DNA from: a virus
Lineage: Duplodnaviria > Heunggongvirae > Uroviricota > Caudoviricetes
IMG/VR virus record: IMGVR_UViG_2684622669_000001
Coordinates: 1-19,618 of that record
Length of the DNA stretch: 19,618 nucleotides
Strand: one strand, 5' to 3'
The notes below the pieces were generated by a model. That model did no database searches and had not been told where the DNA came from. It saw only the letters and a program-made list of their open reading frames with translations. Both the position numbers and the translations under genes were made by a program. Within the stretch, counting starts at the first letter, position 1. Every line of letters begins with the position of its first letter. Below are positions 1 through 19,618 of this stretch, piece by piece.

Positions 1-1
1 C

Positions 2-1473: not shown

Positions 1474-1576
1474 TTATTACAAAAGCCATTCCCTACAGAG
1501 TGGCTTTGATAATGGCTTATACCCTACACGGGATAACTTAACTGATATCCCTTTTAACGGATAAACGGAGCCAACA

Positions 1577-1819: not shown

Positions 1820-1821
1820 AC

Positions 1822-2262
1822 ATGGCGCGCCCAACAAAGTATCAAGAGGCGTATGCCGAACAGGCACGCAAACTGTGCTTGCTGGGCTACACCGATGCAG
1901 AGCTTGCTGATTTCTTCGAAGTTAGTGAGTCAACTATTAACAAGTGGAAGCTTGATTATCCTGAGTTTTCGGAGTCCATAAAAAAGGGTAAGGCCGTCGC
2001 TGATGCAGAAGTTAGTGACCGTCTTTATCAACGCGCTATGGGCTTCGTGGCTCCAGACATCGATATTCGTGTTATTGAAAACAGAATTGTCGAAACTCCG
2101 CTTGAGAAGTATTACCCGCCTGATACAACCGCCGCCATCTTCTGGCTTAAGAACCGACAGAAGGATAAATGGCGCGACAAGGTTGATCACGAGCTAACAG
2201 GCAAAGACGGCGGCGCAATCCAGATTGAAACATCACCGATGAGCACTCTATTCGGAAAATGA
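1822..2262 (+). CDS. Terminase small subunit (Sf6 gp1-like)
   Basis: 146 aa. The N-terminal HTH-like segment and the C-terminal ...GKDGGAIQIETSPMSTLFGK match the Sf6-type small terminase as I recall it. The stop overlaps the terL start (ATGA). Confidence 0.85.
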   Translation: MARPTKYQEAYAEQARKLCLLGYTDAELADFFEVSESTINKWKLDYPEFSESIKKGKAVADAEVSDRLYQRAMGFVAPDIDIRVIENRIVETPLEKYYPPDTTAAIFWLKNRQKDKWRDKVDHELTGKDGGAIQIETSPMSTLFGK

Positions 2263-3674: not shown

Positions 3675-3675
3675 T

Positions 3676-5874
3676 ATGGCAGAAAAAAAGATGACTGACT
3701 GGCATCGCAAGGTGCTGTGCAACTTTGATAATGCCTGGTCAGCAACGCAGGATATGCGTGAGCAGATTATTGAGGCTCAACGTTTCGTCCGGGTATCCGG
3801 CGCACAGTGGGAAGGCAGCACAAACGCTGGTTACTCATTTGATGAAGGCAGGTTTGAGCATTACCCGCGCTTTGAACTGAATAAGATTGCCCGTGAATGT
3901 GATCGCATCATTGGCGAGTATCGACAGAATCGCATCAGCGTTAAATTCAGGCCGAAGGATGACAAGGCATCGGAAGCGTTAGCCGAAAAGATGAACGGCA
4001 AATTCCGCGCTGACTATCAGGAAACATCAGGTGGCGAAGCGTGTGATAACGCATTTGATGATGCTGTAACGGGCGGATTCGGTTGTTTCCGCATGTGTGC
4101 CGATTACGAAGATGAAATGGACCCAAGTAACGAGCAGCGACGCATCAGCATTCTTCCTGTTTACGACCCGGCGACATGCGTCTTCTTCGATCAGGACAGC
4201 AAACAATATGACCGCTCTGATGCTATGTGGGCTATGGAAATGTTCTCCATGACGCCTAAAGCGTTCGAGGCTGAATACCCTGATTCCATTGCGGCAAGCC
4301 TTTCTCGGGATGACACTGGTACTCAGTATGACTGGTCAACGCCTGACGCCATCTATGTTGGACGTTACTACGAAGTTCGCATAGAGAAGGTGAAGCTCAC
4401 GGCGTGGCGCAACCCTGTTAGCGGAGAAACGGCAATCTATGATGAAGAGCAAATCAAAGATATTGTCGACGAGCTGACCGATGGTGCATTCGAACTGATT
4501 GGCGAGAGAACGGTGAAGAAACGCCGAGTTTATTGCGGTCTTCTTTCTGGCGCTGAATGGCTGGAAGAACCGAAGCGTATTCCTGGCGAACATATTCCTC
4601 TCATCCCGGTATATGGGCGTCGCTCATTTGTTGATAATCAGGAGCGAATCGAAGGCCACGCAGCAAAAGCGATGGATGCACAGCGTCTTGAGAACCTGAT
4701 GGTTTCCATGATTGCAGATAACGCTACTCAGGCTGGCGGTGATGGCATTCCTATCGTGGATGTTGATTTCATTCCCGGCCCATTAATGAATCACTGGGCA
4801 GAGAGGAATAAGAAAAGACCTGCAGTTCTTCCTATGACCAGCAAGAAGGACAAAAACGGAACAGTCATTTCAGAAGCTCAGGTTGCTGGCTGGACACCTC
4901 CGACACAAATGCCGCCAGCTCTTGCCGGGCTATTGCAGTACACCGGAACGGCTATTCAGCAAATTACAGGTGCGTCGCAGCTTGAGAACATGCCGAGCAA
5001 CGTCGCTACTGATACCGTTGATAGCATTTTTAACCGGATGGACACGCAGTCCTATATCTACATGGACAACATGGCTAAATCTATGCGTCGCGCTGGCGTT
5101 GTGTGGCTTTCTATGGCGCGTGAAGTCTATGGCAGCGATACGCCGATGCGTATCGTTAATGAGGACGGCAGCGATGACGTGGCGCTGATGACTGGTGAAG
5201 TGGTTGACCGTCAGACAGGGCAGGTTATCGCGCTTAACGACCTTTCGCAGGGTAACTATGAAGTGACTGTCGATGTCGGTCAGTCGTTCGCTACTCGCCG
5301 TGATGCAACGGTTAAGTCGTTACTTTCCATGCTGGCACTTATCCCACCAGGAACGCCGAAGCACGACCTTGTATCGTCGATGATTCTCGACAATATGGAC
5401 GGCGAAGGGATGGACGACCTGAAAGAATACAACCGCAATCAGTTGCTTCTGTCTGGAGTTATCAAGCCGAGAACACCAGAAGAACAGCAGATGGTTGAGC
5501 AGGCGAAACAACAACAGGCCAGTCAGCCAGATCCGGCTATGGTTGCAGCGCAAGGTCAGCTTCTTGCAGGTCAGGCTGAATTGCAGAAAGCGCAGAACGA
5601 GCAGGCAGCCATTCAGGTTAAAGCATTCCAGGCACAGACTGATGCTCAGGTTGCAGCGGCAAACGTTGTGAAAATCCTCGCATCTGCCGATAGCCAGCAG
5701 AAATCTGATATCCGCGAGGCTCTGAAACTGCTCGGACAGTTCCAGCAACAGCAAGGAGACAATGCCCGTGCTGATGCAGAGCTTGTCCTGAAAAGTCAGG
5801 CACAGGGTCATGCGCAGCGCATGGACATCAGCAGCATCCTGCAAAAATCAACTCAGCAACAACCACAGCAGTAA
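3676..5874 (+). CDS. Portal protein (P22 gp1-like) with C-terminal Gln/Ala-rich helical extension
   Basis: 732 aa (P22 portal is about 725 aa). Starts 1 nt after the terL stop. The last ~130 residues are Q/A-rich, as in the P22 portal barrel. Confidence 0.9.
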   Translation: MAEKKMTDWHRKVLCNFDNAWSATQDMREQIIEAQRFVRVSGAQWEGSTNAGYSFDEGRFEHYPRFELNKIARECDRIIGEYRQNRISVKFRPKDDKASEALAEKMNGKFRADYQETSGGEACDNAFDDAVTGGFGCFRMCADYEDEMDPSNEQRRISILPVYDPATCVFFDQDSKQYDRSDAMWAMEMFSMTPKAFEAEYPDSIAASLSRDDTGTQYDWSTPDAIYVGRYYEVRIEKVKLTAWRNPVSGETAIYDEEQIKDIVDELTDGAFELIGERTVKKRRVYCGLLSGAEWLEEPKRIPGEHIPLIPVYGRRSFVDNQERIEGHAAKAMDAQRLENLMVSMIADNATQAGGDGIPIVDVDFIPGPLMNHWAERNKKRPAVLPMTSKKDKNGTVISEAQVAGWTPPTQMPPALAGLLQYTGTAIQQITGASQLENMPSNVATDTVDSIFNRMDTQSYIYMDNMAKSMRRAGVVWLSMAREVYGSDTPMRIVNEDGSDDVALMTGEVVDRQTGQVIALNDLSQGNYEVTVDVGQSFATRRDATVKSLLSMLALIPPGTPKHDLVSSMILDNMDGEGMDDLKEYNRNQLLLSGVIKPRTPEEQQMVEQAKQQQASQPDPAMVAAQGQLLAGQAELQKAQNEQAAIQVKAFQAQTDAQVAAANVVKILASADSQQKSDIREALKLLGQFQQQQGDNARADAELVLKSQAQGHAQRMDISSILQKSTQQQPQQ

Positions 5875-5964
5875 TTAACCCATAACGTGCAATGGCTGTC
5901 TTTATGAGGCCAGGCACCCTATTGCCTTCCGATGGGCTGAACATCGAGTAAACAGGGGTAACAA

Positions 5965-6858
5965 ATGGACCAGATGGCAGAAAACACACCAGAAGTTGAA
6001 ATCGAAACCGACGCGTCAGAGCAGATTCCTGATGATGTCGAACTGGCTGAAGAAGTCGAAACAGAAGATGGCAGTGAGTCCTCCGGCAATGATGCAGAGG
6101 AAGCTACTGAAACTGATGACGACGAATCAGAACAGGAATTCTACTTTGGTGACGAAAAGCTGGATTCGCCAACCAGCGAAGATAGCGCAGAGCATGGACT
6201 GGTAAAACACCTGCGCAAGACGATTAAAGAGAAAGACCGCGAGCTGAAAGAGCTGATGCGTCAGTCTCAGAAACCCGTCGAGCAGCAGCCGGTAATCACT
6301 CAACCACCGAGAATGCCAAAACTGGACGATGAGGACATCGGTTTCGATGAAGAAATCTACCAGCAACGCATGGCTAAGTGGGCAGAGGATAACGGCAAGT
6401 ACCAGCAACAGGAGATGGCTCGCAAGCAGAAGGAGCAGGAGCTTCAGGCTGCCTATCAAGAGCGATTATCCAAATATCAGCAACGTGTTAAGGCCCTCAA
6501 AGTTCCTGGCTATCAGGAAGCTGAGCAGGCCGTACTCGAGGAAATCCCCATCGAGACACAAAACGCGATCCTGTTTGAGTCAGAGAAGCCGGAAATCGTT
6601 GTTCTGGCGCTCGGTCGCAACGCTGAACTGCGCAAGCAACTGGCAGAAGCTACCAACCCCGTAGCAATTGGTCGTCTGCTGGAACGTATCGAATCGAAGG
6701 CCAGAATCATGCCAAAAGCAAAAACCACGGCAGCCACAACCCCGACAGTTAAGGGGAGCAACGGCGCAGTAATCAATAACCTCGACAAACTGAAAGCCAA
6801 GGCGCTGGAAACTGGTGACTGGACGCCGTATTTCGCCGCTAAAAAGGCAAAAAAATAA
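5965..6858 (+). CDS. Scaffolding protein
   Basis: 297 aa (P22 gp8 is about 303 aa). Sits between portal and coat. Highly acidic N-terminus and Q/K/E-rich helical remainder. SD cagggg. Confidence 0.75.
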   Translation: MDQMAENTPEVEIETDASEQIPDDVELAEEVETEDGSESSGNDAEEATETDDDESEQEFYFGDEKLDSPTSEDSAEHGLVKHLRKTIKEKDRELKELMRQSQKPVEQQPVITQPPRMPKLDDEDIGFDEEIYQQRMAKWAEDNGKYQQQEMARKQKEQELQAAYQERLSKYQQRVKALKVPGYQEAEQAVLEEIPIETQNAILFESEKPEIVVLALGRNAELRKQLAEATNPVAIGRLLERIESKARIMPKAKTTAATTPTVKGSNGAVINNLDKLKAKALETGDWTPYFAAKKAKK

Positions 6859-6876
6859 CCTATCGGAGCATTAAGC

Positions 6877-8130
6877 ATGGCTAACCAATTAGCAAAAGAC
6901 CTTGAAATCATGTTCGAAAACTACGTTGAAGGCTTTGAGGCCGCCTGCGTAGTTTCCCGTAACGCTAAAAAATTCCGTCCCGGTGATACAGCAATGCAGC
7001 GAGCAGGTGATGTTCTGTATCGTCAGCAGCATTACCACATGAATATTGAGGAAGGCCTCGACCTCAGCAGCAAAACGCCAACAGCACTGGTTCAGCGCCT
7101 TGTTCCTTCTGTGTTCAAGGAGCCGAAAAACATTCTGTACACTCTGGATGCGCGTGAAATGCGTGACCCGGAACATAAAACTGAAGCTGGTCGCGCCGCA
7201 GGTATGCGCCTTGCTGCACAGATTGACTCTGACCTGATTTCCATGGTCACGCAGCGTGCTACTAACGTGATCACAATGTCTGACTCAACCACAGGTACAC
7301 AGGGCCGTGATTTGTGGAACTGTGCGGCAGGTATTGATGCCACCATGACGGCGATTGGTGTACCTCAGGGTATCAACCGTCGCTCTTTCTGGAACCCCTT
7401 CAACTACAAAGACCTTGCTGGCGAGCTTGGTCACCGTGCCTACGCTCAGGGCGCAACCCTGACAGCATACGAAAAAGCGCAGATCCCTCCGGTTGCTTCC
7501 TTTGATAGCTACAAGACCGATATTTCTGGTCGATTACCGAAAGGAAGCGCTGAATCCTTGACAGTATCAGGCCAACCTGAACACAAGGTTGAAGCGAAAG
7601 ATTTAAATGGTATGCCAGTTGATAACCGACAGGGGACTATTACGGTATCTGCATCTGGCTTGCAGGTTGGTGATGCGTTCACCATTGCCGGTGTGAATTC
7701 CGTACACCAGATCACAAAAGATACCACCGGGCAACCGCAGGTATTCCGTGTTCTGGCTGTTAGCGGAACTACCGTAACAATCTCTCCAAAGATTCTCCCT
7801 GTTGAAAATGCCGATGTTGCGAGTCGTCCATATGCAAACGTCGATGCCAAACCGGCAGCATCAGCAGCAATCACCATTCTCAACAAGAACGCAGCACCTG
7901 CTAACCTGTTCTGGGCTGATGGTTCTGTTGAGCTGATGTACGGCAAACTGGCGTTCCCGACTGGTCAGGGTCCACAGGTAATGACAGCAACCACCGAGCA
8001 GGGCGCTACGCTGATCATGTCTTACGCCTTCGACCACATCAAAGGTGTAACCACTGCGCGTTTCACCACCCTGTACGGTTGCTCTGTACTTGTTCCTGAA
8101 TATACGGGCATCGTTATTGCCGGGCAGTAA
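6877..8130 (+). CDS. Major capsid (coat) protein, P22 gp5-like
   Basis: 417 aa. Segments NAKKFRPGDTAMQRAGDVLY and ILNKNAAPANLFWADGSVELMYGKLAFP parallel P22 coat (KAKKYTPPAASMQRSS..., [26 protein letters not shown]) from memory. SD ggag. Confidence 0.9.
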   Translation: MANQLAKDLEIMFENYVEGFEAACVVSRNAKKFRPGDTAMQRAGDVLYRQQHYHMNIEEGLDLSSKTPTALVQRLVPSVFKEPKNILYTLDAREMRDPEHKTEAGRAAGMRLAAQIDSDLISMVTQRATNVITMSDSTTGTQGRDLWNCAAGIDATMTAIGVPQGINRRSFWNPFNYKDLAGELGHRAYAQGATLTAYEKAQIPPVASFDSYKTDISGRLPKGSAESLTVSGQPEHKVEAKDLNGMPVDNRQGTITVSASGLQVGDAFTIAGVNSVHQITKDTTGQPQVFRVLAVSGTTVTISPKILPVENADVASRPYANVDAKPAASAAITILNKNAAPANLFWADGSVELMYGKLAFPTGQGPQVMTATTEQGATLIMSYAFDHIKGVTTARFTTLYGCSVLVPEYTGIVIAGQ

Positions 8131-8136
8131 TTTTGG

Positions 8137-8157
8137 TGGGGCTTCGGCCCCATTTTT
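8137..8157 (+). terminator. Intrinsic terminator/attenuator after the coat gene
   Basis: tggggc (8137-8142) / ttcg loop / gcccca (8147-8152), followed by ttttt (8153-8157). Begins 7 nt after the coat stop codon. Confidence 0.6.
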
Positions 8158-8171
8158 ATTGGGAGAAGATA

Positions 8172-8360
8172 ATGGCACGAACAATGCTCTATAAGCCGGG
8201 CAACATGATCACCTGTGGTCAGTTTGCTGTCGATTACATCATTGTTGATGACGAAGAAGTTAAATCTCACCTGAAAAAAGGTTGGGTAAAAACTCCTGAA
8301 GAAACCGCAACGAAGCAAAAAGTGGCTAAGGCGGAAGAAGATGGCGAAAACGAAGGGTGA
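8172..8360 (+). CDS. Hypothetical small protein between coat and gp4-like genes
   Basis: The track ORF 8133-8360 is trimmed to the ATG at 8172, which has SD gggagaag upstream and lies after the terminator hairpin. 62 aa; its end overlaps the next gene. Confidence 0.5.
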   Translation: MARTMLYKPGNMITCGQFAVDYIIVDDEEVKSHLKKGWVKTPEETATKQKVAKAEEDGENEG

Positions 8361-8802
8361 TCTCGTTCTAAAGGCTTTACGAAAAGCCGGGCTGTATTCC
8401 AATGCCACGTTGACAGATGCCGACCCTCAGGCAATTGAAGATGCCATTAATGACCTCGAAGACATGATGGCAGCATGGCAGGCGAAAGGTATCGAGCTTG
8501 GATATCAGTTTGCTAATACAGAAAACGGCATCATGCCGTTACCTGACGATGATTCAGGTATCCCTGCATGGGCAAATGATGGCGTCGCTTTGAAACTCGC
8601 TGTGCAAGTGTGCATGGATAACGTCATTCAGCCGTCAGACGCTCTCCTTACCGCTGCTGACAGTGCATATCAAACAATCTGTATCGCTTTAACCAAAATA
8701 CCACCACTTGAGCGGCGAAATGACATGCCTCGCGGTAGTGGTAACAAAAGCGCGTTTACGTGGAATCGGTTTTACATCGAGAAAGATGATCCGAGTACGT
8801 GA
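8341..8802 (+). CDS. Head-completion / tail accessory protein (P22 gp4-like)
   Basis: 153 aa. KTKGDLVLKALRK, ATLTDADPQ, DLEDMMAAW and MPRGSGN parallel P22 gp4 motifs from memory. Synteny supports the call. Confidence 0.85.
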   Translation: MAKTKGDLVLKALRKAGLYSNATLTDADPQAIEDAINDLEDMMAAWQAKGIELGYQFANTENGIMPLPDDDSGIPAWANDGVALKLAVQVCMDNVIQPSDALLTAADSAYQTICIALTKIPPLERRNDMPRGSGNKSAFTWNRFYIEKDDPST

Positions 8803-8811
8803 GGTGAATAA

Positions 8812-10230
8812 ATGCCGATTCAGCAACTTCCGCTTATGAAAGGTGTCGGCAAAGACTTCCGAAACGCCGACTATATCGACTATCTGCCAGTGAATATGCT
8901 GGCTACACCCAAAGAAATCCTCAACAGCAGCGGATATCTTCGCTCATTCCCGGGCATTGCCAAACGTTCTGATGTGAATGGTGTATCGCGCGGCGTCGAG
9001 TACAACATGGCGCAGAATGCTGTTTATCGCGTGTGTGGTGGCAAGCTCTACAAAGGGGAAAGTGAAGTCGGTGACGTCGCCGGAAGTGATCGTGTATCAA
9101 TGGCGCATGGTCGGACATCACAGGCGATAGGTGTTAATGGTCAACTGGTCGAATACCGCTATGATGGCACGGTTAAAACCGTCTCAAACTGGCCTACTGA
9201 CAGCGGATTCACACAGTACGAGTTAGGTTCAGTTCGCGACATTACGCGCTTACGTGGGCGTTATGCGTGGTCAAAAGACGGCACTGATTCATGGTTTATC
9301 ACTGACCTTGAAGACGAATCGCATCCTGACCGCTACAGCGCACAATATCGCGCAGAATCGCAGCCGGACGGCATCATCGGTATCGGGACATGGCGAGACT
9401 TCATCGTCTGCTTTGGTTCATCGACTATTGAATATTTTTCCCTGACAGGTGCAACCACCGTTGGTGCCGCTTTGTATGTCGCACAGCCATCGCTGATGGT
9501 GCAGAAAGGCATTGCCGGAACTTACTGCAAAACGCCGTTTGCTGATTCGTATGCGTTCATCAGCAATCCGGCAACAGGTGCGCCGTCTGTGTATATCATC
9601 GGCTCTGGTCAGGTATCACCAATCGCCAGCGCGAGCGTTGAGAAAATCCTCCGCTCCTACACTGCTGATGAACTGGCTGATGGCGTGATGGAGTCTCTGC
9701 GCTTTGATGCTCATGAGTTGCTGATTATCCACCTTCCTCGCCATGTTCTCGTGTACGACGCATCTTCAAGCGCCAATGGTCCGCAATGGTGTGTACTGAA
9801 AACAGGCTTGTATGACGATGTGTACCGCGCTATCGACTTCATTTACGAAGGAAATCAGATAACGTGCGGCGATAAGCTGGAATCGGTTATCGGCAAATTG
9901 CAGTTCGATATCAGCAGCCAGTACGACAAGCAACAGGAACACCTGTTGTTTACTCCGTTGTTCAAAGCGGATAACGCAAGAGTGTTCGACCTTGAGGTTG
10001 AATCTTCAACTGGCGTTGCGCAGTACGCTGACCGCCTGTTCCTCTCTGCAACCACTGACGGAATCAATTACGGACGTGAGCAGATGATTGAACAGAATGA
10101 ACCGTTCGTTTACGACAAACGTGTTTTGTGGAAGCGAGTAGGGCGCATCAGGAAAAATGTCGGTTTCAAATTGCGCGTTATCACGAAGTCACCTGTAACT
10201 CTGTCTGGCGCTCAGATAAGGATTGAGTAA
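8812..10230 (+). CDS. Tail accessory / hub protein (P22 gp10-like)
   Basis: 472 aa, the same length as P22 gp10. The N-terminus [49 protein letters not shown] is near-identical to my recollection of gp10. SD gaggtga. Confidence 0.9.
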
Positions 10231-10931
10231 TGGCGGATTCGAATCTCAATACACCTGTTATTGTTCAGGCGACGCGGCTCGATACATCAGTCCTTCCACG
10301 CAATATCTTCTCGCAGTCATATCTGCTGTACGTTATTGCACAGGGTGCTGATGTTGGTAACGTGGCTAACAAAGCCAACGAGGCAGGACAGGGCGCTTAT
10401 GATGCACAAGTCAGGAACGATGAGCAGGATGTGATTCTCGATGACCACGATGCAAGAATCACCGCAAACACAAAAGCGATAAATCTCCTTGAGGTCAGGT
10501 TAACAACCGCCGAAGGGAAGATAGTCGTACTGCGTAGCGATGTTGATTACTTGCTGGATGAGGTTATCGATATTCAGGCGCATCTTGTCACTGTTGACAA
10601 AAGACTGGAGGGCGTAGAAAGCGATGTATCTGACATTAAGAGTGATTACGTATCGAAAACCGTAACCGAATCGCAGTCTCTTGCGTCACCACTGAATGTA
10701 AAAACATCATATTCAGTTGATGGAATTCAGGTTGTTGGAGCAAGAAATACCGGATGGACTGCAGCCACAGGTACGCCACTTCTTGGCTCATTCAACGCTA
10801 ACCAGTCATACACTGTCGGCACTACGTACACACAATCCGAAGTCGCAGCTCTCGCTACAGGTTTGCAGCAGGCGCGGCAGCGTATTCTGGCGCTTGAAAC
10901 GGCACTTAGATTACATGGGCTGATTGACTGA
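10230..10931 (+). CDS. Tail needle (P22 gp26-like), trimeric coiled-coil plug
   Basis: 233 aa, the same length as P22 gp26. The N-terminus [39 protein letters not shown] and the C-terminal ...[19 protein letters not shown]... match gp26 from memory. TAATG overlap with the upstream gene. Confidence 0.9.
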
Positions 10932-11386
10932 TGATTACATTCAAACCAACGCGAAACATCGACCTGATAGAAGCAGTCGGAAATCACCCTGACATTATCG
11001 CCGGGAGCAACAACGGTGATGGATACGACTACAAACCTGATTGCCGTTACTTTGAGGTGAACGTGCACGGGCAGTTCGGCGGCATTGTTTACTATCAGGA
11101 GATTCAGCCGCTGACATTCGATTGCCACGCCATGTACCTGCCAGAGGTTCGCGGCTTCAGCAAGGAAATCGGGCTGGCGTTCTGGCGATACATTCTGATT
11201 AACACCACCGTTCAGTGCGTCACATCGTTCGCTGCACGCAAATTCCGCCACGGTCAGATGTATTGCGCAATGATTGGCCTTAATCGTGTAGGAACCATCA
11301 AGAAATACTTCAAAGGCGTGGATGACGTGACGTTTTACAGCGCCACACGCGAAGAACTAATCGACTTCCTGAATCACGGGAGATAG
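10931..11386 (+). CDS. gp14-like virion/ejection-associated protein (by synteny)
   Basis: 151 aa. Occupies the gene-14 position of the P22 order, with a TGATG overlap to the needle gene. Assignment is by position, not by sequence recollection. Confidence 0.6.
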   Translation: MITFKPTRNIDLIEAVGNHPDIIAGSNNGDGYDYKPDCRYFEVNVHGQFGGIVYYQEIQPLTFDCHAMYLPEVRGFSKEIGLAFWRYILINTTVQCVTSFAARKFRHGQMYCAMIGLNRVGTIKKYFKGVDDVTFYSATREELIDFLNHGR

Positions 11387-11388
11387 CC

Positions 11389-12081
11389 ATGTTATATGCA
11401 TTTACGCTGGGCAGAAAACTGCGCGGCGAGGAACCTTATTGCCCTGAAAAAGGCGGGAAAGGTGGCAGTTCTGATAAAAGCGCAAAGTATGCCGCAGAAG
11501 CTCAGAAGTATGCCGCAGACCTGCAAAATAAGCAGTTCAACACCATCATGAACAACCTGAAGCCGTTTACTCCTCTGGCTGATAAGTATCTCGGCAGCCT
11601 CGAGAACTTATCGTCTCTGGAAGGGCAAGGTCAGGCACTTAACCAGTATTACAACTCTCAGCAGTACAAAGATCTTGCTGGTCAGGCTCGCTATCAGAGT
11701 CTGGCGGCAGCGGAAGCAACAGGTGGATTGGGTTCCACCGCAACCAGTAATCAGTTAGCAACAATCGCACCAACGCTTGGTCAGCAATGGCTATCTGGAC
11801 AAATGAACAATTACAACAACCTGGCAAATATCGGTCTTGGCGCTCTTCAGGGGCAGGCAAACGCCGGGCAAACATATGCCAACAACATGAGTCAGATTTC
11901 ACAGCAAAGCGCGGCGCTGGCTGCGGCAAACGCCAACCGACCGTCAGCATTGCAGCAGGGGGTTAGTGGTGCTGCATCCGGTGCGCTTTTGGGTGGTGGC
12001 ATAGCCAGTGCTCTCGAGCTATCAACTCCGTGGGGTGCTGGTATCGGTGCTGGTCTTGGTCTGCTTGGCTCGTTGTTTTAA
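11389..12081 (+). CDS. Ejection (internal virion) protein, P22 gp7-like
   Basis: 230 aa (P22 gp7 is about 229 aa). Q/N/A/G-rich low-complexity protein with a Gly-rich hydrophobic C-terminus (GGGIASALELSTPWGAGIGAGLGLLGSLF). SD gggaga. Confidence 0.7.
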   Translation: MLYAFTLGRKLRGEEPYCPEKGGKGGSSDKSAKYAAEAQKYAADLQNKQFNTIMNNLKPFTPLADKYLGSLENLSSLEGQGQALNQYYNSQQYKDLAGQARYQSLAAAEATGGLGSTATSNQLATIAPTLGQQWLSGQMNNYNNLANIGLGALQGQANAGQTYANNMSQISQQSAALAAANANRPSALQQGVSGAASGALLGGGIASALELSTPWGAGIGAGLGLLGSLF

Positions 12082-12091
12082 GGGGTAATCA

Positions 12092-13441
12092 ATGGCTACG
12101 TGGCAACAGGGTATTAATTCTGGTGGTTTTCTGGCTGGCATCGGTACGCAAAATGAGAATGCGCCAAAGGCAAGCGACATTAACGCAACGCTTGGTCTGA
12201 TCCGCGAAAACAATGAGTTGGCTCGCTCAGGTGCAAATAACGTTGGTCTGACCGCGTTACGTGGTCTGGCTGGAGTTGCTGATATTTATAAGCAGGAACA
12301 GCAACAGAAAGCGATTAATGCGTTCAATAAGGTTCATGCTGATGCATGGGCTTCTGGTGATCCATCGGGACTATTTAAGTTTGCCAAGGAAAATCCAGCG
12401 TTTGTTGCGCAGGCACAACAGGCGTTTTCCGGTCTTAATGAGCAGCAACGCAACGATATGGGCGATTTAGCCATGAGAGCTAACGTCGCTCTTTCTCAGG
12501 GACCGGAAGCCTACAGTAAATTCATTACTGACAACAAGGACAGGTTAAATCGCGTTGGCGCTAATGCTGACTGGATGATTCAGACAGGTATCCAGAATCC
12601 AGAGCAGCTATCACACATGCTGACTACTATGTCTCTCGGTGCGCTTGGACCAGAAAAGGCGTTTGCTGTTCAGGATAAGATGGTTGGTCGCCAGCAGGAG
12701 CAGCAAAGAATTAAAGAAACCATTCGCAATAATGACATGACGAATGCGAGGGCTATTAGGGGTCAGGATCTTTCCTATAAGGCTCAAATGGCAAGACTGA
12801 ATCACGACAAGTATGTGTTTAAGCAGTCACAGGCGGCCCTTGAAAGAGCAGGACAACTTCAGGATATGGATGTTTTGTCTCTTAACTCACAGATAGCAGC
12901 GACGGGAATTGATCCGCTAACCGGTAAAGCTGCAACGTCAGCCAGAATGTCTCAGGCTAAGAGATGGCTTGATGGCAACAATAATTACAACAATGCGTTA
13001 ATTACTGGTGAGCGAGGGATAGAGAAAATTGATTCTTTGCTTGGTAAGAAGGAGCTTGAAGGTATTGGTCGCTTCGAAGGAAGAAATATAGATGGCTTCA
13101 CAAGTGCTGAAGGGCTTGCAAACCGTAATGCGATAGAAGAATTAAAGTCGGGGGCGTTTGTCCAGAACGTGCAGACTATGCGAGGTATGGGTAGCCTCTC
13201 CAATGCTGAAGGCCAAAAACTGGAAAACCTGATCGCGAAACTCGATATAACACAGCCTGAAGAGGTCGTCAGAAAACAGTTATCTGAAATCCGATCGCAA
13301 TATTCTGTATTTCAAAAGGTTGCAGCAAGGGAGGCTGAATCAATGGGATATAGTTCATCAGGTTATGACACATATGTTAGTGAGCGAAAATCAGGAAGCG
13401 ACAGCAATAAGTCCGGTTTCTCGTCTTTATGGGGTGATTAA
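12092..13441 (+). CDS. Ejection protein, P22 gp20-like
   Basis: 449 aa (P22 gp20 is about 471 aa). Position in the operon; SD aagggg. Confidence 0.7.
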
Positions 13442-15609
13442 TGGCTAAAGCATGGAAAGATGTTATCGCTTCTCCACAGTATCAGGCGTTAACTGAAGAA
13501 CAGAAAGCACAGGCTCAAGCGCAATATTTTGATGAGGTTGTTGCCCCTAAGGCTGGTGACAAATGGGCTGAAGCAAGAGATCAGTTTTATGCAGCATACC
13601 CTCCGCCTCAGCAGCAGAAAGAAGAACCATCATTGATGCAACAAGCTGGCGATTGGCTCACTGGTGGTCAAAGTGCAGGGCAAATTGCAGAACAGGCTGG
13701 TCGTGGTCTGGTAAACATACCATTTGACGTATTGCAGGGTGGCGCAAGTCTGATTAATGCAATCAGCCAGGGGCTTGGTGGCCCCAAGGTTTTGGATGAT
13801 GTTTATCGCCCTGTCGATCGACCGACAGACCCTTGGGCGCAAGCCGGTGAAACATTTGGGGGGTATCTCCTGCCAATTGGCACAGCGGCAAAAGCTGCTG
13901 GAGCGACAGCAAAGCTCGCAGGAGACATCGGTTCCGCAGGAAACATGATTGCAGGTTCTCTTGCTGATGCTGCAAATCAGGAGGGCGATTTTGCACAAAA
14001 TGCTGCCATTAATGGTGGTATCAATATTGGTGCTCAGGGGATACTTTCTGGGGCTGGAAGGATCTTAACCTCTAAATCACCTCAAGTTCTTGGTGGCGGG
14101 GCAATAAATTCCGCTGCTGATGTTTCGAAAATGGCAAAGTCTGGTACAGGAAGAGAGATTATTGCCAGACAGTCAGCTAATGTGTCAGACGAAATAGCAA
14201 AAGCAGCAGATACTGCTGGAATAGATATCAACGCATTAACTCCTGGCATGAGATCAGGTAGTCGTGGTCTTGCTCAGGCGGAGGGGATTCTGGCGTCAAA
14301 GCCCGGAATTACACAGGATGCACACACCAAAGCATTCAGTGAAATAGAGTCGAAATTTAACTCAGCATTGGATGAGTTTGGGGCTGAAGCAGGAACTGCA
14401 TCAGAAAAAAGTGCAGCCATAAAACAAAGGGTTTTGGCAAGTATTGATAAAATGAAAAATTCAGAAAAGGCCGCATGGGATAGCGTCCGCTCCACGATTC
14501 CTGACGCAAAGGCCAGAATGTCAAACCTGAACGCTACAATTCAGGGTGATATTTTGGCTGGCATGCCGCTAACTCCTGAGATGAAACAATTCGCATCTGC
14601 TTATGCTAAAACTGGTAAAAAAGGAATCACGTTTGATGCCATGAAGGCATGGCGAAGTAAACTTGCTGACGCAGAGCAGAAGTATATAAGGTCTGGTGAG
14701 GCAAATACGGCAAGGCGCATGGCTGAGCTTCGTGATGCAGCAACGGAAGATATGCGCATAATGGCTCAAAATGGCGGTTTTCTTGATGACTGGCAAAAAG
14801 CTAATGATCTGTCAAAGGCAAGATTTACAGCACAAGAACAGGCTGAAGCAGCGTTTGGTAGAGACCTTGCAACTGATCAGTTGGTAACTAATGGATCTAA
14901 GGCGTTACAGGGTTCAGCAAAAAGTGGAACAGGTCAGTTCCATAAAATAATAAGCGCCCTACCTGAGTCGGAACGCGCGCCAGCAATTGCATCAATATTA
15001 CAAGATGCAATGTCGCAAGGGGTACGCGGAGGTAAGTCTGAAGAGGCTGGAATTAAGCATATCGCGACTATTCTTACCCCACAAAACGTGAAGGCAATTA
15101 GTCGATATTCTCCAGAACTTGGCAGGATTACAAGTTCATACGGAGAACTTGCACGAGCAGCAACAAAGCCACTTCGATATGTTGAACAGACAGGGCGATC
15201 TATGCCAGCCATTAGCACTCTTGAGAATGGCCTTCATCCAGTTTTAGAGAGCGCATTGTCTGGCGCTTTTAGAACTACTGGCACTATCGCAGGGTTCTCT
15301 GGAGGAGGCGTTATTGGAGCAATAGCGGGTGGCGCTGCAGGTGGGGCAATTGATGCAATGGCAAAAGGAGCGATAGCGAAATTATCCGCAACTAGAAGCG
15401 GTCGTTACGCTATTGAAAAGGCTGTTCAAGAGGCAACAAAGGCAGTTAAGGTTGGGGCAAGTGATGGCGCATTAGCGGCGGCGGAACGCAGATTTATGGC
15501 AAATAAGGCCGCCGTAAAAGCAATACGCGAGGCACTAGGAAACGAAGAGTTCCAGCGTTTAGCAAGAGCTGGAATTGTGGCATCGCTAAGCGGAATGGCA
15601 CAGGAGTAA
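13441..15609 (+). CDS. Ejection protein, P22 gp16-like (longer than P22 gp16)
   Basis: 722 aa, last gene of the virion operon, TAATG overlap with the upstream gene. Gly/Ala-rich hydrophobic segment near the C-terminus ([30 protein letters not shown]). Confidence 0.7.
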
Positions 15610-15939
15610 TTAGTCATCCATGGATGGATTGAGCTTATCTCGTGTTGATGTGGCAATTTTCCCAACATTTTTCAACCAAGATTTTAAGAAGGATATGTCG
15701 TCCTTAATATCATGAATATCCTCATTCTTTATACGATCAACCTTATCCTCTAAGCTCTCTATAGAACGCTCAATGCTAGACAGAGAGATTTTTAAGTCCC
15801 CTTGCTCACGTTCCAGTGAGGATTTGAGAGCACAATATTCGTTTTCTAGAATTCCTATTTTTTTTGTTAGAGAGTGCATTCGATACTCATACACCAAACC
15901 AGAAACGACTAATGCAGCCAACAGAAACCATTCAAGCAC
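15610..15939 (-). CDS. Hypothetical membrane-anchored coiled-coil protein (accessory gene)
   Basis: The track ORF 15610-16155(-) is trimmed to the in-frame GTG at 15937-15939, which has a perfect SD aaggagg 5 nt upstream. Predicted product has an N-terminal hydrophobic helix (LEWFLLAALVVSGLVYEY) then a heptad-like charged region. Stop abuts the gp16-like stop. AT-rich. Confidence 0.5.
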   Translation of the reverse strand: MLEWFLLAALVVSGLVYEYRMHSLTKKIGILENEYCALKSSLEREQGDLKISLSSIERSIESLEDKVDRIKNEDIHDIKDDISFLKSWLKNVGKIATSTRDKLNPSMDD

Positions 15940-15969
15940 ACCAACCTCCTTAGTTTTGAACAGGATACC

Positions 15970-16335
15970 ATGAAAAAAGTTAACATTGGAAACGTACCAA
16001 AGATGCTCGTTCCGCTCTTTGAGAGCGGTACAATTGTGTTTTGTAGAGACTTTCCAGAATGGCAACGCCTGCATCAAAAACTTGGCGTTGACGTGCATGA
16101 CTCGGACGCCAACGGAGCGTCTCATACAATGAGTAGCGAGAATGGTGTTTTGCATGTGATAGGCGTGTTCAATGGCAAACTATCTACTATTGCCCATGAG
16201 TGCGCTCACATGGCATTCGATATCTGCTCAAGGGTAGGTGTTGATGTTGAACTAGGAAGAGCCAACGAGACTTACTGCTACTTAATGAGCAGGCTTGTTG
16301 AGTTCTGCGAGCGACATATCAAAAAGCCGGAGTGA
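15970..16335 (+). CDS. Hypothetical HExxH-motif protein (putative minimal zincin-like metallopeptidase)
   Basis: 121 aa, SD agga 4 nt upstream of ATG. Contains IAHECAHMAFD (HExxH) with a downstream Glu in NETYCY, the gluzincin spacing. Stop codon sits in the loop of a terminator hairpin. Confidence 0.6.
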   Translation: MKKVNIGNVPKMLVPLFESGTIVFCRDFPEWQRLHQKLGVDVHDSDANGASHTMSSENGVLHVIGVFNGKLSTIAHECAHMAFDICSRVGVDVELGRANETYCYLMSRLVEFCERHIKKPE

Positions 16336-16343
16336 CCCGGCTT
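16324..16343. terminator. Bidirectional terminator between convergent accessory genes
   Basis: aagccgg (16324-16330) / agtgac / ccggctt (16337-16343). Flanked by aaaaa upstream and a T-rich stretch downstream, so both strands get a U-tract. Confidence 0.5.
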
Positions 16344-16348
16344 GATTA

Positions 16349-16528
16349 TTACTTTTTGCTGTCTGGAGTTCGCTTATCCAATACCCAGCCATGACCTGGC
16401 TTTGTTGTTGGTGGAAGCCTTTCGTTGTCCTTGACGGTTGCAAAATTGTCTTTCTTACCGCCGCGTGGGCCAACTTCTTGGTATATTCCGCCGTTTTTTC
16501 CTGTGTTTTCACCTGGTTTTTTCGCCAT
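16349..16528 (-). CDS. YjzC-like small protein (tentative family call)
   Basis: The track ORF 16349-16543(-) is trimmed to the second ATG (16526-16528), which has SD gagg 6 nt upstream. The 59-aa product MAKKPGENTGKNGGIYQEVGPRGG...ERLPPTTKPGHGWVL fits the YjzC pattern as recalled. Confidence 0.45.
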   Translation of the reverse strand: MAKKPGENTGKNGGIYQEVGPRGGKKDNFATVKDNERLPPTTKPGHGWVLDKRTPDSKK

Positions 16529-16610
16529 GATATACCTCAACATATACCCGTTATTGGGCGATTAAATATTGATCTCATTTTATAAGTAGTCAATATGGTC
16601 CAAAAAAGGC

Positions 16611-16645
16611 AAAAATTAACCCACCTTCAGGTGGGTTTTTTGTTT
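16611..16645. terminator. Bidirectional intrinsic terminator overlapping the 3' end of the Mnt-like gene
   Basis: aacccacc (16618-16625) / ttca / ggtgggtt (16630-16637), then tttttgttt on + and aattttt on the minus side. The Mnt-like stop codon (16627-16629) is in the loop. Confidence 0.6.
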
Positions 16646-16947
16646 AGCAGTTCTCTCAACTTTTCGTTCTGCTCTCTGAACTTTTCCTGTATTTCTTTTT
16701 GCATGGCGATAACCTGGGCTTGAAGTTGAACTAGCGCATCAACATTTAGCGGAACCGAGACGCTGTTGATTTTATCTGCTATTTCCCCGAGTGTATTTTC
16801 TGCATTCAAGGCATCTTCCAGTATCTGAACAATCTCTGAGTTCATTGATCTGCCGTTACGTTTGGCTCGTTCAGCTATAGCATCCCGCATTCCTGCAGGA
16901 AGCCTGATATTGAACCTATCCATTTCATGACTAGGGAACTTGCTCAT
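16627..16947 (-). CDS. Mnt/Arc-family ribbon-helix-helix repressor (Mnt-like paralogue 1) with extended C-terminal coiled coil
   Basis: 106 aa. FNIRLPAGMRDAIAERAKRNGRSMNSEIVQILEDAL matches the Arc/Mnt RHH motif (P22 Mnt: FNFRMPMEVREKLKFRAEANGRSMNSELLQIVQDAL, from memory). SD gagg. Divergent from the Arc-like gene. Confidence 0.8.
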   Translation of the reverse strand: MSKFPSHEMDRFNIRLPAGMRDAIAERAKRNGRSMNSEIVQILEDALNAENTLGEIADKINSVSVPLNVDALVQLQAQVIAMQKEIQEKFREQNEKLRELLNKKPT

Positions 16948-16989
16948 ATGACCTCAACGTAAAGATGTTCGCTAAACAATAGCACCAAC

Positions 16990-17029
16990 TTGACATCAAA
17001 ATAAATGGTGTTAAATTGGTTCTAGAACC
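16990..17029 (+). promoter_or_regulatory. Candidate rightward promoter (-35 TTGACA, -10 TAAATT) with overlapping palindromic operator
   Basis: TTGACA at 16990-16995, a 16-nt spacer, then TAAATT at 17012-17017. Perfect 12-bp palindrome GGTTCTAGAACC at 17018-17029, inside a 21-bp near-palindrome AATTGGTTCTAGAACCAAGTT (17014-17034). Confidence 0.45.
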
Positions 17030-17058
17030 AAGTTGGCATCATTGTGGGAGGATTACTT

Positions 17059-17232
17059 ATGAAAGATGTGCTTTACACAGGTCGTAAAAGTCAAAGTTTC
17101 CAGCTTCGTTTGCCAGCGCGAATGAAGGAGGAGATTAGACGTGTTGCTGAAATGGATGGAATTTCTATCAACTCTGCGATTGTGCAGCGACTGGCTAAAA
17201 GCCTGAGAGAGGAAAGAGCTAATGCCCAGTAA
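17059..17232 (+). CDS. Arc-like ribbon-helix-helix repressor
   Basis: The track ORF is trimmed to the ATG at 17059, with SD gggagg 7 nt upstream. 57 aa. FQLRLPARMKEEIRRVAEMDGISINSAIVQRL parallels P22 Arc (FNLRWPREVLDLVRKVAEENGRSVNSEIYQRV, from memory). Confidence 0.75.
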   Translation: MKDVLYTGRKSQSFQLRLPARMKEEIRRVAEMDGISINSAIVQRLAKSLREERANAQ

Positions 17233-17312
17233 AAATAGTGAAGCCCGGCAGTGCGTGAACACAAACCGGGCCTCTATGTCAGTAACCGTATGCAAGGAAA
17301 CTAACATGAATA
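17233..17312 (-). ncRNA. Candidate sar-like antisense RNA opposite the antirepressor ribosome-binding site (hypothetical)
   Basis: Minus-strand -10-like hexamers just inside the ant-like start (TACAAT = + 17312-17317; TATAAT = + 17328-17333). Minus-strand GC hairpin 17243-17272 followed by a U-rich stretch in the arc-ant spacer. Analogy to P22 sar RNA. Confidence 0.25.
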
Positions 17313-17932
17313 TTGTAGCAAAATCAGATTATAACTTCCACGGAGTTGAATTGGTGCCCACCCGTGATATGCATGGTGTTTGGTTTACATCATCTAATAT
17401 TGCATCTGCACTTAAATACGCAAATAGTCGTGCAGTAACAATGATTTATAACAAGTATAGCGATGAGTTTAGCGCCGGAATGACTCAGGTACTCGAAGTG
17501 AGTACCTCAGGAAATTATCGCAAAAAAGTGCGTGTTTTCTCACTACGCGGTGCCCACCTAATCGCGATGTTTGCTCGCACTCAGGTAGCCAAAGAGTTCC
17601 GCCGCTGGGTGCTGGATATTTTGGATCGGCAGGCAGAATGCTCACCGATTGCAAAACAGTTTACTGACGAAGAACTGGTTAATCTCTGCTACTTACAATT
17701 GTGGATGGAGAAGAGTCAACAAATGTGCAAACACATCTACCCAGGAATGAAGCAAATTGGTTCTGAGCTTTCAGGAAGGATTTACGATATTGCATATGAG
17801 ACTCGCTACATGTCAGAAGAAACCAAGAAATCACTTCTTCGTGAAATGAAGAATCTTGATACCAACAATTTTGTCGTAAAGAACGCTCAGCCAATGCTGG
17901 CAAAACTGCGCGGCGAGGAATGGATTCATTGA
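17306..17932 (+). CDS. Antirepressor-like protein (Bro-N / P22 antirepressor N-terminal-like domain)
   Basis: The track ORF 17222-17932 is trimmed to the ATG at 17306, with SD aagga 6 nt upstream. 208 aa. ...FSLRGAHLIAMFARTQVAKEFRRWVLDIL... is typical of Bro-N/antirepressor N-domains. Position after arc mirrors P22 arc-ant. Confidence 0.7.
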   Translation: MNIVAKSDYNFHGVELVPTRDMHGVWFTSSNIASALKYANSRAVTMIYNKYSDEFSAGMTQVLEVSTSGNYRKKVRVFSLRGAHLIAMFARTQVAKEFRRWVLDILDRQAECSPIAKQFTDEELVNLCYLQLWMEKSQQMCKHIYPGMKQIGSELSGRIYDIAYETRYMSEETKKSLLREMKNLDTNNFVVKNAQPMLAKLRGEEWIH

Positions 17933-17950
17933 TTGGTGCGCCGGACTGCG

Positions 17951-18026
17951 CAAAAAGAAAACCGCCAGTGTGCTGCTGGCGGCCTATGTCACACACTTAC
18001 TACCACATAAGGAATGCCTAATGACT
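17951..18026 (-). ncRNA. Second candidate antisense RNA with its own minus-strand terminator (hypothetical)
   Basis: Stem ccgccag (17962-17968) / ctggcgg (17976-17982). On the minus strand it is followed directly by GTTTTCTTTTTG (rc of 17951-17961); the + strand has no T-tract. Minus-strand promoter-like GTGACA-17 nt-TACATT inside the first codons of the 18021 gene. Confidence 0.25.
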
Positions 18027-18746
18027 TTTAAGAATGTAGCAAACATCGGATCCGTTGTCACGGATAAAACCATTGACAGCCAAAGTCTTCTGATGATGGT
18101 TAATGAAGCTCGCAAGTTATGTGGAGAGCCATCAGTACGTAACAACAAATTCATCGAGAAAATTGAGGATGAATTGGAAGGCGAGACCTACACAAAAAGT
18201 GTAGGTCGGAAAAACGGGGCTGACATTGATGTTATCTCCATGACTATCAAGCAGGCGCTTCGTGTTGCTGCTCGCGAATCTAAAGCAGTTCGCCGAACAC
18301 TTGTAGACAAACTTGAAAGTATGCAGGAAGCGCACATTAAAAGCGGTAAATCAGCGAGTGGACTTGTTGAGTATCGTCAAGCGCGAACATTGAAAATGAC
18401 GGTTGAAGCTGTTACCAATCTGTTCGATCTGATGCCAAATCTTGCGCCGGAGGCAAAGCAGACAGCGGCAGCAAGTATAATCAACCCGCTCGTTGGTTTT
18501 AATGCAATACCTCTTCCGGCAATAGAAGAGCATTACTACTCAGCAGGGGAGGTTGCAGAGCAGCTTGGAGTAACGGCCAACAAGATTGGTCGCATTGCTA
18601 ACGCAAACAACCTCAAAACTGAGCAGTACGGGAAGTTCTTCCTGGATAAATCTGCGCATTCCAGCAAACAGGTGGAAGCGTTCCGCTACAATGAGGAAGG
18701 TGTTAAAGCACTACAACACCTGATTCATGGGAGTAATGTTGCATAA
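18021..18746 (+). CDS. Second antirepressor-like / phage regulatory protein (Rha/ORF6N-like N-terminus, KilAC-like C-terminus; tentative)
   Basis: The track ORF 17970-18746 is trimmed to the ATG at 18021, with SD aaggaa 6 nt upstream. 241 aa. The N-terminal region (TIDSQSLLMMVNEARKLCG...) is Rha/ORF6N-like and the C-terminal region (YYSAGEVAEQLGVTANKIGRIANANNL...) is KilAC-like. Domain calls are from memory. Confidence 0.55.
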   Translation: MTFKNVANIGSVVTDKTIDSQSLLMMVNEARKLCGEPSVRNNKFIEKIEDELEGETYTKSVGRKNGADIDVISMTIKQALRVAARESKAVRRTLVDKLESMQEAHIKSGKSASGLVEYRQARTLKMTVEAVTNLFDLMPNLAPEAKQTAAASIINPLVGFNAIPLPAIEEHYYSAGEVAEQLGVTANKIGRIANANNLKTEQYGKFFLDKSAHSSKQVEAFRYNEEGVKALQHLIHGSNVA

Positions 18747-18967
18747 TGGCAAAGAAAAAATATGGCATTATGCCGCCAAGAATCAAAGGAAGAGCCAGGG
18801 TAAAAGGCGATGCTGGAAGGTATCACATTCTTGGAGTTCTGTGGCATGAGAGAGCTTTAATTTTAAGTAGACCTCATGGGTACATTGAAAAGGTATCTAT
18901 AGATAGAGTAGAGATTCTTCCCCTTACACCTGAAGAAGAAGAAACGTACGGACTTTTTGATAACTAA
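18746..18967 (+). CDS. Hypothetical small basic protein, translationally coupled to the upstream gene
   Basis: 73 aa. Start ATG overlaps the upstream stop (TAATG). Followed by a strong terminator. Confidence 0.45.
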   Translation: MAKKKYGIMPPRIKGRARVKGDAGRYHILGVLWHERALILSRPHGYIEKVSIDRVEILPLTPEEEETYGLFDN

Positions 18968-18973
18968 CCAGCT

Positions 18974-19004
18974 AAACCCGCTTAATCGCGGGTTTTTTCT
19001 TTTC
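18974..19004 (+). terminator. Intrinsic terminator ending the rightward accessory operon
   Basis: aaacccgc (18974-18981) / ttaatc / gcgggttt (18988-18995), followed by ttt and cttttc. The minus-strand Mnt-like stop codon (18982-18984) is in the loop. Confidence 0.6.
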
Positions 19005-19239
19005 TAAGGATATCAGCCGCAACTTCTTTTACTCGCTCCGAGATTAATGAGGCCAACCTCTCTTCTTCATCACGATACCCGCTTACAGGTGATGGTTTGG
19101 AGAGTGATTCTTCCATCGTAGCCACAATTTCGGAATTGATAGACCTGTTATTCATTTTTGCACGCTGCTTAATCTTAGCGTGCAACTCGTGCGTAAGCCT
19201 CAAGTGGAACTGCGCCTCATCGTATTTGCTGTACATCAT
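18982..19239 (-). CDS. Mnt-like ribbon-helix-helix repressor (paralogue 2, closest to P22 Mnt)
   Basis: The track ORF 18982-19320(-) is trimmed to ATGATG at 19234-19239, with SD gagg 5 nt upstream. 85 aa. QFHLRLTHELHAKIKQRAKMNNRSINSEIV...SKPSPVSGYRDEEERLA parallels P22 Mnt (...NGRSMNSELL...SKPSPVTGYRNDAERLA, from memory). Confidence 0.8.
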   Translation of the reverse strand: MMYSKYDEAQFHLRLTHELHAKIKQRAKMNNRSINSEIVATMEESLSKPSPVSGYRDEEERLASLISERVKEVAADILRKEKTRD

Positions 19240-19371
19240 CAATGCCTCACCAAATGGGTGGAATGGCATCGTAAAACCTACTGTACAAATCAACAATCGT
19301 ACCATTTCGGTATGCAACAAACATCAACCGTAGCCATGCTGCGGCGATTCCTTGTATCTGGAGCAAATTAA

Positions 19372-19530
19372 ATGACAGACATTACAGCCAATGTGATCGT
19401 ATCGATGCCTTCGCAACTCTTCACTATGGCGCGTTCTTTTAAAGCTGTAGCTAATGGCAAAATTTATATCGGTAAAATTGATACTGACCCAGTAAATCCA
19501 GAAAACCAGATTCAGGTTTATGTAGAGAAC
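19372..19530 (+). pseudogene. Tailspike gene, N-terminal head-binding domain only (interrupted by IS2)
   Basis: [53 protein letters not shown] matches the conserved P22/Sf6/HK620 tailspike N-terminus. After codon 53 the reading frame enters an IS end and no longer resembles tailspike. Confidence 0.85.
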
Positions 19531-19618
19531 TGGATTTGCCCCTATATTTCCAGACACCTGTTATCACTTAACCCATTACTGGCCTGCTGCCGCAGATATT
19601 CCCGTGGCGAGCGATAAC
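19531..19618 (-). mobile_element. IS2 (IS3 family) terminal inverted repeat and 3' end of the transposase gene, partial (continues beyond window)
   Basis: TGGATTTGCCCCTATATTTCCAGACACCTGTTATCACTTAACCC matches the IS2 terminal inverted repeat as recalled. The minus-strand translation of 19545-19618 gives ...[24 protein letters not shown], typical of an IS3-family OrfB C-terminus. Confidence 0.8.
19542..19618 (-). CDS. IS2 transposase OrfB C-terminal fragment (partial, 5' part outside window)
   Basis: Minus-strand frame ends with stop TAG (+ 19542-19544) after ...[26 protein letters not shown]. This ending is characteristic of IS3-family transposases. Confidence 0.7.

Follow-up and report, generated by a model that had tools for sequence, protein, structure and literature searches.

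Introduction

Antirepressors flip prophages from lysogeny to the lytic cycle, and post-transcriptional control of their synthesis affects prophage stability and induction in Escherichia coli, including pathogenic lineages. Here we describe a putative small antisense RNA on the minus strand of the spacer between an arc-like repressor gene and an ant-like antirepressor gene in a viral DNA of 19,618 nucleotides (IMG/VR record IMGVR_UViG_2684622669_000001, Caudoviricetes, positions 1 to 19,618; this whole stretch is called the window below). An original prediction had proposed that a leftward transcript covers the antirepressor ribosome-binding site at this spot, in the manner of the sar RNA of phage P22.

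The closest described system is P22 sar itself (Rfam family RF00262), an antisense RNA of the immI region. The P22 annotation lists sar as a misc_RNA of 70 nt, antisense within the arc-ant spacer; the promoter is placed inside ant and the terminator over the arc stop codon. For repression by this RNA, PMC2629481 and PMC12111858 cite work by Liao et al. (1987) and by Wu et al. (1987), and PMC2629481 further cites Schaefer and McClure (1997) on P22 sar. The RNA was detected by small-RNA sequencing (sRNA-seq) in PMC13397905, where two more cis-antisense RNAs of P22, sas and 23as, are mentioned.

As predicted, the window RNA would resemble the lambda/P22 OOP RNA and other cis-antisense phage RNAs in being short, convergent with its target, ended by an intrinsic terminator and suited to tuning a regulator of the lysis-lysogeny choice. 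OOP lies over the 3′ end of cII and works through RNase III cleavage, with no cover of a ribosome-binding site; Rfam gave no OOP match in the window. The c4 RNA of the P1/P7 immI region is a small RNA that masks a ribosome-binding region and blocks translation of the icd-ant antirepressor operon. It is processed from the transcript of its own target and acts via short complementary boxes, and is thus no convergent cis-antisense RNA.

Outside the phages, SymR (RF01809) is a cis-antisense antitoxin RNA of ~77 nt with two hairpins that lies across the 5′ end and ribosome-binding site of its target. With cmscan, SymR aligned end to end with 17237-17308 (minus strand), scoring 21.2 bits (E 0.15) where the gathering threshold is 61, which we take as a chance-level resemblance of architecture and not as membership. 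Rfam reported nothing for the whole window at gathering thresholds, and a local search at E ≤ 10 returned only this sub-threshold SymR match and three miRNA families, which we likewise rejected as chance. A full-text literature search with the RNA or DNA sequence found no paper, and the literature on sar, immI and P22-like phages gave matches only on P22, epsilon34 and UAB_Phi20.

Results and discussion

A putative sar homologue in the arc-ant spacer

Judged by open reading frames (ORFs), Pfam domains and the P22 annotation, the predicted RNA has the location of sar: it lies on the strand opposite to arc-ant, within the intercistronic spacer. The arc-like ribbon-helix-helix repressor gene (17059-17232, plus strand; Pfam Arc PF03869, E 8.3e-12) ends with a TAA stop codon at 17230-17232, and the ant-like antirepressor gene, the predicted target, follows at 17306-17932 on the plus strand (Bro-N PF02498, E 9.5e-10; P22_AR_C PF10548, E 2.7e-14). 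The candidate RNA occupies 17229-17305 on the minus strand. We consider it very probable that this strand encodes a diverged homologue of P22 sar which would repress translation of the ant-like gene.

Homology was assessed with a covariance model, R1, built solely from 14 spacers of the window type. R1 matched the window once, at 17229-17305 (minus strand), with 101.9 bits and all pairs intact. It also recovered authentic P22 sar at its annotated position (L002:3017-3091, minus strand), with 37.3 bits (E 3.2e-7 in 7 kb); 0 of the 20 pairs were flagged as non-canonical in the P22 RNA, and the alignment deleted the small internal loop of the window type. Visual comparison of the P22 and window spacers shows three stretches in common: both ends of the long hairpin (GAAGCCC...GGGCUUC), the 5′ stem's 3′ arm (UUACUGACA) and the start (AACATGAAT). 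When 38 distinct spacers were extracted after a pattern scan of viral contigs, they formed a continuum from the P22 type to the window type, with intermediate subfamilies bridging the two. These comparisons establish homology in both sequence and structure: the window element is, by this measure, a diverged homologue of sar beyond the reach of RF00262.

The two systems differ in their hosts, Salmonella for P22 and E. coli here, and in the protein they would control, the window target having a Bro-N N-terminus in place of the P22 Ant N-terminal sequence.

Fold of the predicted RNA and strand of the conserved structure

Transcription from 17305 to about 17231-17235 would give an RNA of about 71-75 nt, compared with about 68-69 nt for sar. 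Its predicted 5′ stem-loop (17278-17305, minus strand) pairs 17300-17305 with 17278-17283 (GUUAGU/ACUGAC), and the loop holds an anti-Shine-Dalgarno sequence (anti-SD), UCCUU, complementary to the AAGGA at 17294-17298 that is the Shine-Dalgarno sequence (SD) of the ant-like gene. An anti-SD in the loop of the 5′ hairpin is also found in P22 sar, although there the SD is GGAG. Next comes a long 3′ hairpin (17240-17274, minus strand), which folding, alignments and covariation identify as a sar-type terminator stem. As in P22 sar, it is rich in G.U pairs and closed by a 4-nt loop; it differs in that an internal loop divides the stem into 10 + 4 bp, whereas the P22 stem has 14 contiguous bp. The tail ACUAUUUUU (17239->17231, minus strand) ends the predicted RNA over the arc TAA at 17230-17232, again as in P22. 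The GC-rich hairpin in the spacer and the U-rich stretch behind it, both reported in the original prediction, are therefore where it had put them.

A 73-nt minus-strand RNA starting at 17305 folded into two hairpins at -33.3 kcal/mol, compared with -16.2 +/- 2.9 for shuffled sequences (z -5.9; 0 of 200 shuffles as good), and the minimum-free-energy and centroid folds agreed on the sar-like two-hairpin form. Read on the plus strand, the same interval reached -19.5 kcal/mol (z -1.95). P22 sar behaved in the same way, with -29.5 kcal/mol (z -5.3) for the RNA and -21.0 (z -2.2) for its plus strand. Ten divergent spacer types, each folded independently, gave a stem of 5-6 bp from the predicted +1 G onward, with the anti-SD in the enclosed region, and then a 13-15-bp hairpin followed by a U-run (z -3.9 to -6.5).

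The U-run stands 4 nt off the stem. This offset had been raised as a doubt; it is real, but it is a trait of the whole family and no argument against a sar-like RNA, because authentic sar shares it, with a tail (AACUUU) that likewise lies over the arc TAA.

Because it is cis-antisense, the predicted RNA is by construction perfectly complementary to the leader of the ant-like mRNA over positions -1 to about -75. Starting at 17305, it would take in the SD and everything to -1 and leave out the AUG itself, as P22 sar does. Of the suggestion that the leftward RNA would be complementary to both the SD and the start codon of ant, only the part on the SD holds, since the predicted start precedes the ATG by one base.

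Covariation bears out this structure. In a plain, independent MAFFT alignment of 29 sequences, 96.7% of the cells were paired in the proposed structure, and 36-50% in slid controls. For the final covariation set, subfamilies were added by the similarity of their proteins to the ant-like product, giving 38 distinct sequences. Here 97.7% of the cells were paired (slid controls ≤ 46%), 15 of 20 pairs showed compensatory double changes, including 6/6 of the 5′ stem, and 0 of 500 shuffles reached the observed values.

The same data bear on the possibility that the structure has its role in the arc-ant mRNA (plus strand), where it could stabilise the transcript between the cistrons, serve as a processing site or couple translation, and that there is no antisense RNA at all. 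The hairpin does form on that strand, with the energy and z-score given above. Yet in a model-fitted alignment of 94 hits (37 distinct sequences), 164 cells held a G.U combination, which pairs only on the minus strand, against 2 with an A.C combination, which would pair only on the plus strand; 99.1% of the cells were paired on the minus strand and 77.1% on the plus strand. The G.U pairs of the 3′ hairpin exist on the minus strand only, and because of such pairs the antisense hairpins are more stable than their mRNA complements. Nor does a U-run follow the hairpin on the plus strand. Given the G.U/A.C asymmetry and the weak plus-strand folds and z-scores, we rejected a plus-strand mRNA structure as the explanation, and regard it as scarcely credible. 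On the alignment evidence, the strand of the conserved structure is unambiguous: it is conserved on the minus strand only.

A conserved extended -10 in register with the predicted 5′ end

Two -10-like hexamers had been noted on the minus strand within the 5′ end of the ant-like gene (ATG at 17306), TACAAT (17317->17312) and a 'perfect' TATAAT (17333->17328), and both are there. TACAAT, in ant codons 3-4, occupies the exact place where the annotated P22 Psar interval puts TATACT. A TGC precedes the -10 in the window as in P22, so that both are extended -10 elements (TGnTAnnnT); the Psar-like element of the window, TGC-TACAAT, extends over 17320->17312 in ant codons 3-5. Farther upstream, GTGGAA (17336-17341, minus strand; TTGGAA in JEP4-type relatives) may serve as a weak -35-like hexamer with an 18-nt spacer. 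It overlaps a conserved F-H/Q-G protein motif, and the two constraints are inseparable. The predicted transcription start is G17305 on the minus strand, one base upstream of the ant ATG and 7 nt downstream of the -10. P22 sar has the same arrangement, with its annotated start at L002:3091 and the ATG at 3092.

In all subfamilies of relatives, the 5′ stem opens with the predicted +1 G. TGnTAnnnT is kept in nearly all variants (TGCTACAAT, TGCTATACT, TGCTACAGT, TGCTACACT, TGCTATAAT and TGCTAAACT), although the encoded residues differ; a few variants have CGC, TTC, CTG or CGT instead of TGn. We examined synonymous sites in 36 unique ant 5′ ends, which had been retrieved by protein similarity and are unbiased for these codons. 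Third-position entropy was 0 at ant codons 3, 4, 6 and 7 and 0.59 at codon 5, compared with 1.5-1.9 bits at the invariant residues Pro18, Ser29, Ala33 and Ala35. In a sar homologue from a prophage of E. coli Res13-Lact-PEA14-20 (L284, 1500-1600; R1 81.1 bits), the ATG is displaced by 3 nt and the -10 falls in codons 2-3, yet its distance to the base that opens the 5′ stem is still 7 nt. The -10 thus keeps its distance to the RNA stem despite the shift of the ATG, which argues that the constraint follows the RNA and not the reading frame. What the aligned sequences demonstrate is conservation of a promoter motif that keeps register with the 5′ end of the RNA.

Could the RNA instead start from the upstream hexamer? 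A dedicated antisense RNA from TATAAT, instead of or alongside the TACAAT start, would begin at about 17321, measure ~89 nt and cover the start codon. It has in its favour a perfect -10 in the window, and an RNA of 89 nt would keep both hairpins behind a 14-nt 5′ tail (-35.1 kcal/mol, z -5.8). The hexamer varies in most relatives, however, reading TGTAAT, TGAAAT, TTAACT or other sequences, because it hangs on synonymous TAT/TAC variation at Tyr codon 9 (third-position entropy 1.81 bits). It also lacks a TGn extension, its -35 would be CACCAA, and it has no P22 counterpart. We rejected it as a conserved promoter and consider such a start improbable; the 'perfect TATAAT' emphasized in the original prediction is an unconserved Tyr-codon variant, and TACAAT with its TGC is the relevant -10.

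A further possibility is that the hairpin is merely a leftward terminator or insulator, shielding arc and Pant from antisense read-through, with no short regulatory transcript arising inside ant. Hairpin and U-run are indeed oriented for leftward termination, and a promoter scan called nothing at the site. This account leaves unexplained a 5′ stem-loop that begins exactly 7 nt from the conserved TGnTAnnnT, the compensatory changes at 6/6 of its pairs and the invariant synonymous sites over the -10. Furthermore, the P22 homologue of the element has been defined as an RNA by experiment (misc_RNA; sRNA-seq, PMC13397905). We judge a terminator without an RNA to be highly improbable.

A promoter-driven sar homologue thus remains our preferred reading, and the sar-like character proposed at the outset is upheld, as far as comparison of sequences can carry it, by the recovery of P22 sar with R1, the two-hairpin architecture, the covariation, the minus-strand G.U pairs and the position of Psar.

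Counter-evidence and proposed mode of action

Several results weigh against a functional sar homologue at this site. RF00262 (gathering threshold 43 bits) gave no match on 16900-17500, even at E ≤ 10. In a positive control it scored P22 sar at 97.8 bits, and its consensus tracks the P22 sequence nearly base for base; the model appears narrow. The paired percentages of the 94-hit alignment and of the final covariation set (A3 and A4), which were fitted to the model, are inflated by that fitting. The -35 at the predicted promoter is weak, as the original prediction had conceded, but this is accounted for by the extended -10. Simple scans called neither a sigma-70 promoter nor a terminator at the site; their silence carries no weight, because they equally missed the authentic P22 Psar and sar terminator. 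TGNTANNNT is not enriched across the window, with 32 occurrences seen and 34.8 expected. Such hexamers alone are no better than chance, and what gives TGNTANNNT weight is solely where it stands and that it is conserved. The scarcity of synonymous changes in codons 1-8 could be due in part to a constraint from translation initiation or a recent cassette exchange. Lastly, the RefSeq annotation of E. coli 55989, the one genome checked, has no non-coding RNA (ncRNA) at this spot (NC_011748.1, 2672926-2673002, where the predicted RNA would lie on the + strand of the record).

We infer that the RNA is made, with approximately the ends given here, and that it represses translation. RNA polymerase would start from the extended -10 inside ant codons 3-5, initiate at G17305, one base ahead of the ant ATG, and terminate at the long hairpin and the U-run that covers the arc stop codon. 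On the P22 model, the product would anneal to ant messages, either those started at Pant or those that read through from the late operon and escape repression by Arc and Mnt. As the anti-SD UCCUU meets AAGGA, the ribosome-binding site would be occluded and antirepressor synthesis held down.

Spread among E. coli genomes and phages

A 131-bp interval with the element was present at ≥ 80% coverage in 70 of 5,426 complete E. coli genomes, e.g. SBF22 and 55989, and the same sequence type occurred in many viral contigs. Among phage records, megablast and blastn found the whole spacer in JEP4 alone. JEP4 and many contigs carry a different arc gene, the replacement extending exactly as far as the stop codon and U-run, while the spacer and the first ant codons are kept; past about codon 12, the body of ant diverges as well. 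Junctions with other upstream arc-like genes lie exactly at the stop codon/U-run (window 17226-17232, L001, L155 and others). Since the spacer and first codons are kept while the flanks are swapped, the putative RNA gene and the 5′ end of ant travel as one exchange unit.

This distribution bears on the idea that the element is a decaying, non-functional sar remnant in a defective prophage. According to PMC2629481, many of the ant morons in P22-like prophages have degraded. Here, however, the arc-like, ant-like and mnt-like ORFs are intact, as are all pairs of the element at its 101.9 bits, and the relatives in complete genomes and viral contigs carry compensatory substitutions. A remnant therefore strikes us as most implausible.

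If the element is instead a working sar homologue, the P22 sar mechanism would extend to a sequence-diverged subfamily found in many viral contigs as well as in at least 70 of the 5,426 complete E. coli genomes, a subfamily missed by RF00262 and, in 55989, devoid of ncRNA annotation. The alignments and the covariance model could then serve as the seed of a wider sar family. Combined with invariant synonymous sites, the strand-specific G.U signature would also provide a testable case of an RNA gene and promoter overlapping the start of a protein-coding gene.

The surrounding immI-like region

Gene content identifies the right end of the window as the immI ('ant moron') region of a Lederbergvirus-type, P22-like podovirus prophage of E. 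coli. The order is mnt-like gene, Pant/operator, arc-like gene, spacer and ant-like gene, the same layout as in the annotated P22 immI. To the left, a large ejection-protein-like ORF ends at 15609 in the ORF list. The mnt-like Arc-family repressor gene (16627-16947, minus strand; Pfam Arc PF03869, E 1.6e-20) is divergent from the arc-ant operon, and just downstream of it lies a symmetric hairpin, AACCCACCTTCAGGTGGGTT (16618-16637), which resembles a bidirectional terminator, with T-runs on both strands.

Promoter scan and sequence together point to a Pant-like promoter on the plus strand (16990-17031), TTGACA-16-TAAATT preceded by TG. Its -10 is overlapped by a perfect 16-bp palindrome, TTGGTTCTAGAACCAA (17016-17031), between the divergent mnt-like and arc-like genes. 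The palindrome is likely to be an Arc/Mnt-type operator, cf. Oarc/Omnt of P22.

Downstream of the ant-like gene are two more plus-strand ORFs and then a minus-strand Arc-family gene. The latter, a third ribbon-helix-helix gene (18982-19320, minus strand), sits directly upstream of the tailspike gene, and its JEP4 homologue is annotated as mnt. The immI region of the window accordingly holds arc and two minus-strand Arc-family repressor genes, and Pfam found Arc domains in all three of these small repressors. The tailspike, identified in the ORF list by its head-binding N-terminus, starts at 19372.

Further sar-like units

A second sar-like candidate unit lies at 17949-18061 on the minus strand, where the RNA (17950-18026) would cover the ribosome-binding site and the start codon (ATG 18021) of the gene that follows ant. 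The putative promoter is GTGACA-17-TGC-TACATT (18061->18033), with a predicted start near 18026 (minus strand), and a 10-bp hairpin (17985->17959) is followed by UCUUUUU. Among 28 unique relatives of the gene after ant, codons 5-7 always hold TG[CT]TA[CA]A[TG]T while the residues vary. Every type among these relatives has a minus-strand hairpin and U-run, and the stem sequences are mutually unrelated; there is a G.U pair on the minus strand where the plus strand would mismatch. The second unit was recognized neither by R1 (7.3 bits) nor by Rfam. From its sequence features it looks like a separate, analogous antisense unit or family, with no detectable homology to sar.

Homologues of sar were also found by R1 in other settings. 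The Arc / small ORF / antirepressor module of L284 sits between the lambda-like tail genes L and K. In the chromosome of E. coli CFSAN064035, R1 scored 49.7 bits at L283:1204-1300, within a P4-like element that has a primase gene. This unit is antisense to the start of an 'Icd-like' gene whose first codons contain an extended -10, TGGTATGAT; a hairpin matching the unit (86% identity over 51 bp) was found in roughly 130 complete E. coli genomes. The design common to such cassettes appears to combine an extended -10 within the target's opening codons, a 5′ hairpin that covers the ribosome-binding site and a G.U-rich terminator at the upstream stop codon. The tandem units in the window, the sar homologues in ant modules among lambdoid tail genes and those before an Icd-like gene in P4-like elements all point to this design as a possible mobile cassette for regulation and no peculiarity of P22, a proposal that we rate about as probable as not.

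One viral contig, L017, has two sar-type units, at L017:1229-1301 and L017:4268-4344. The window type is represented by one of them; in the other, a terminator hairpin of the P22 type is joined to a different 5′ stem (GUCGU/ACGAU), and the unit stands in front of a different ant allele.

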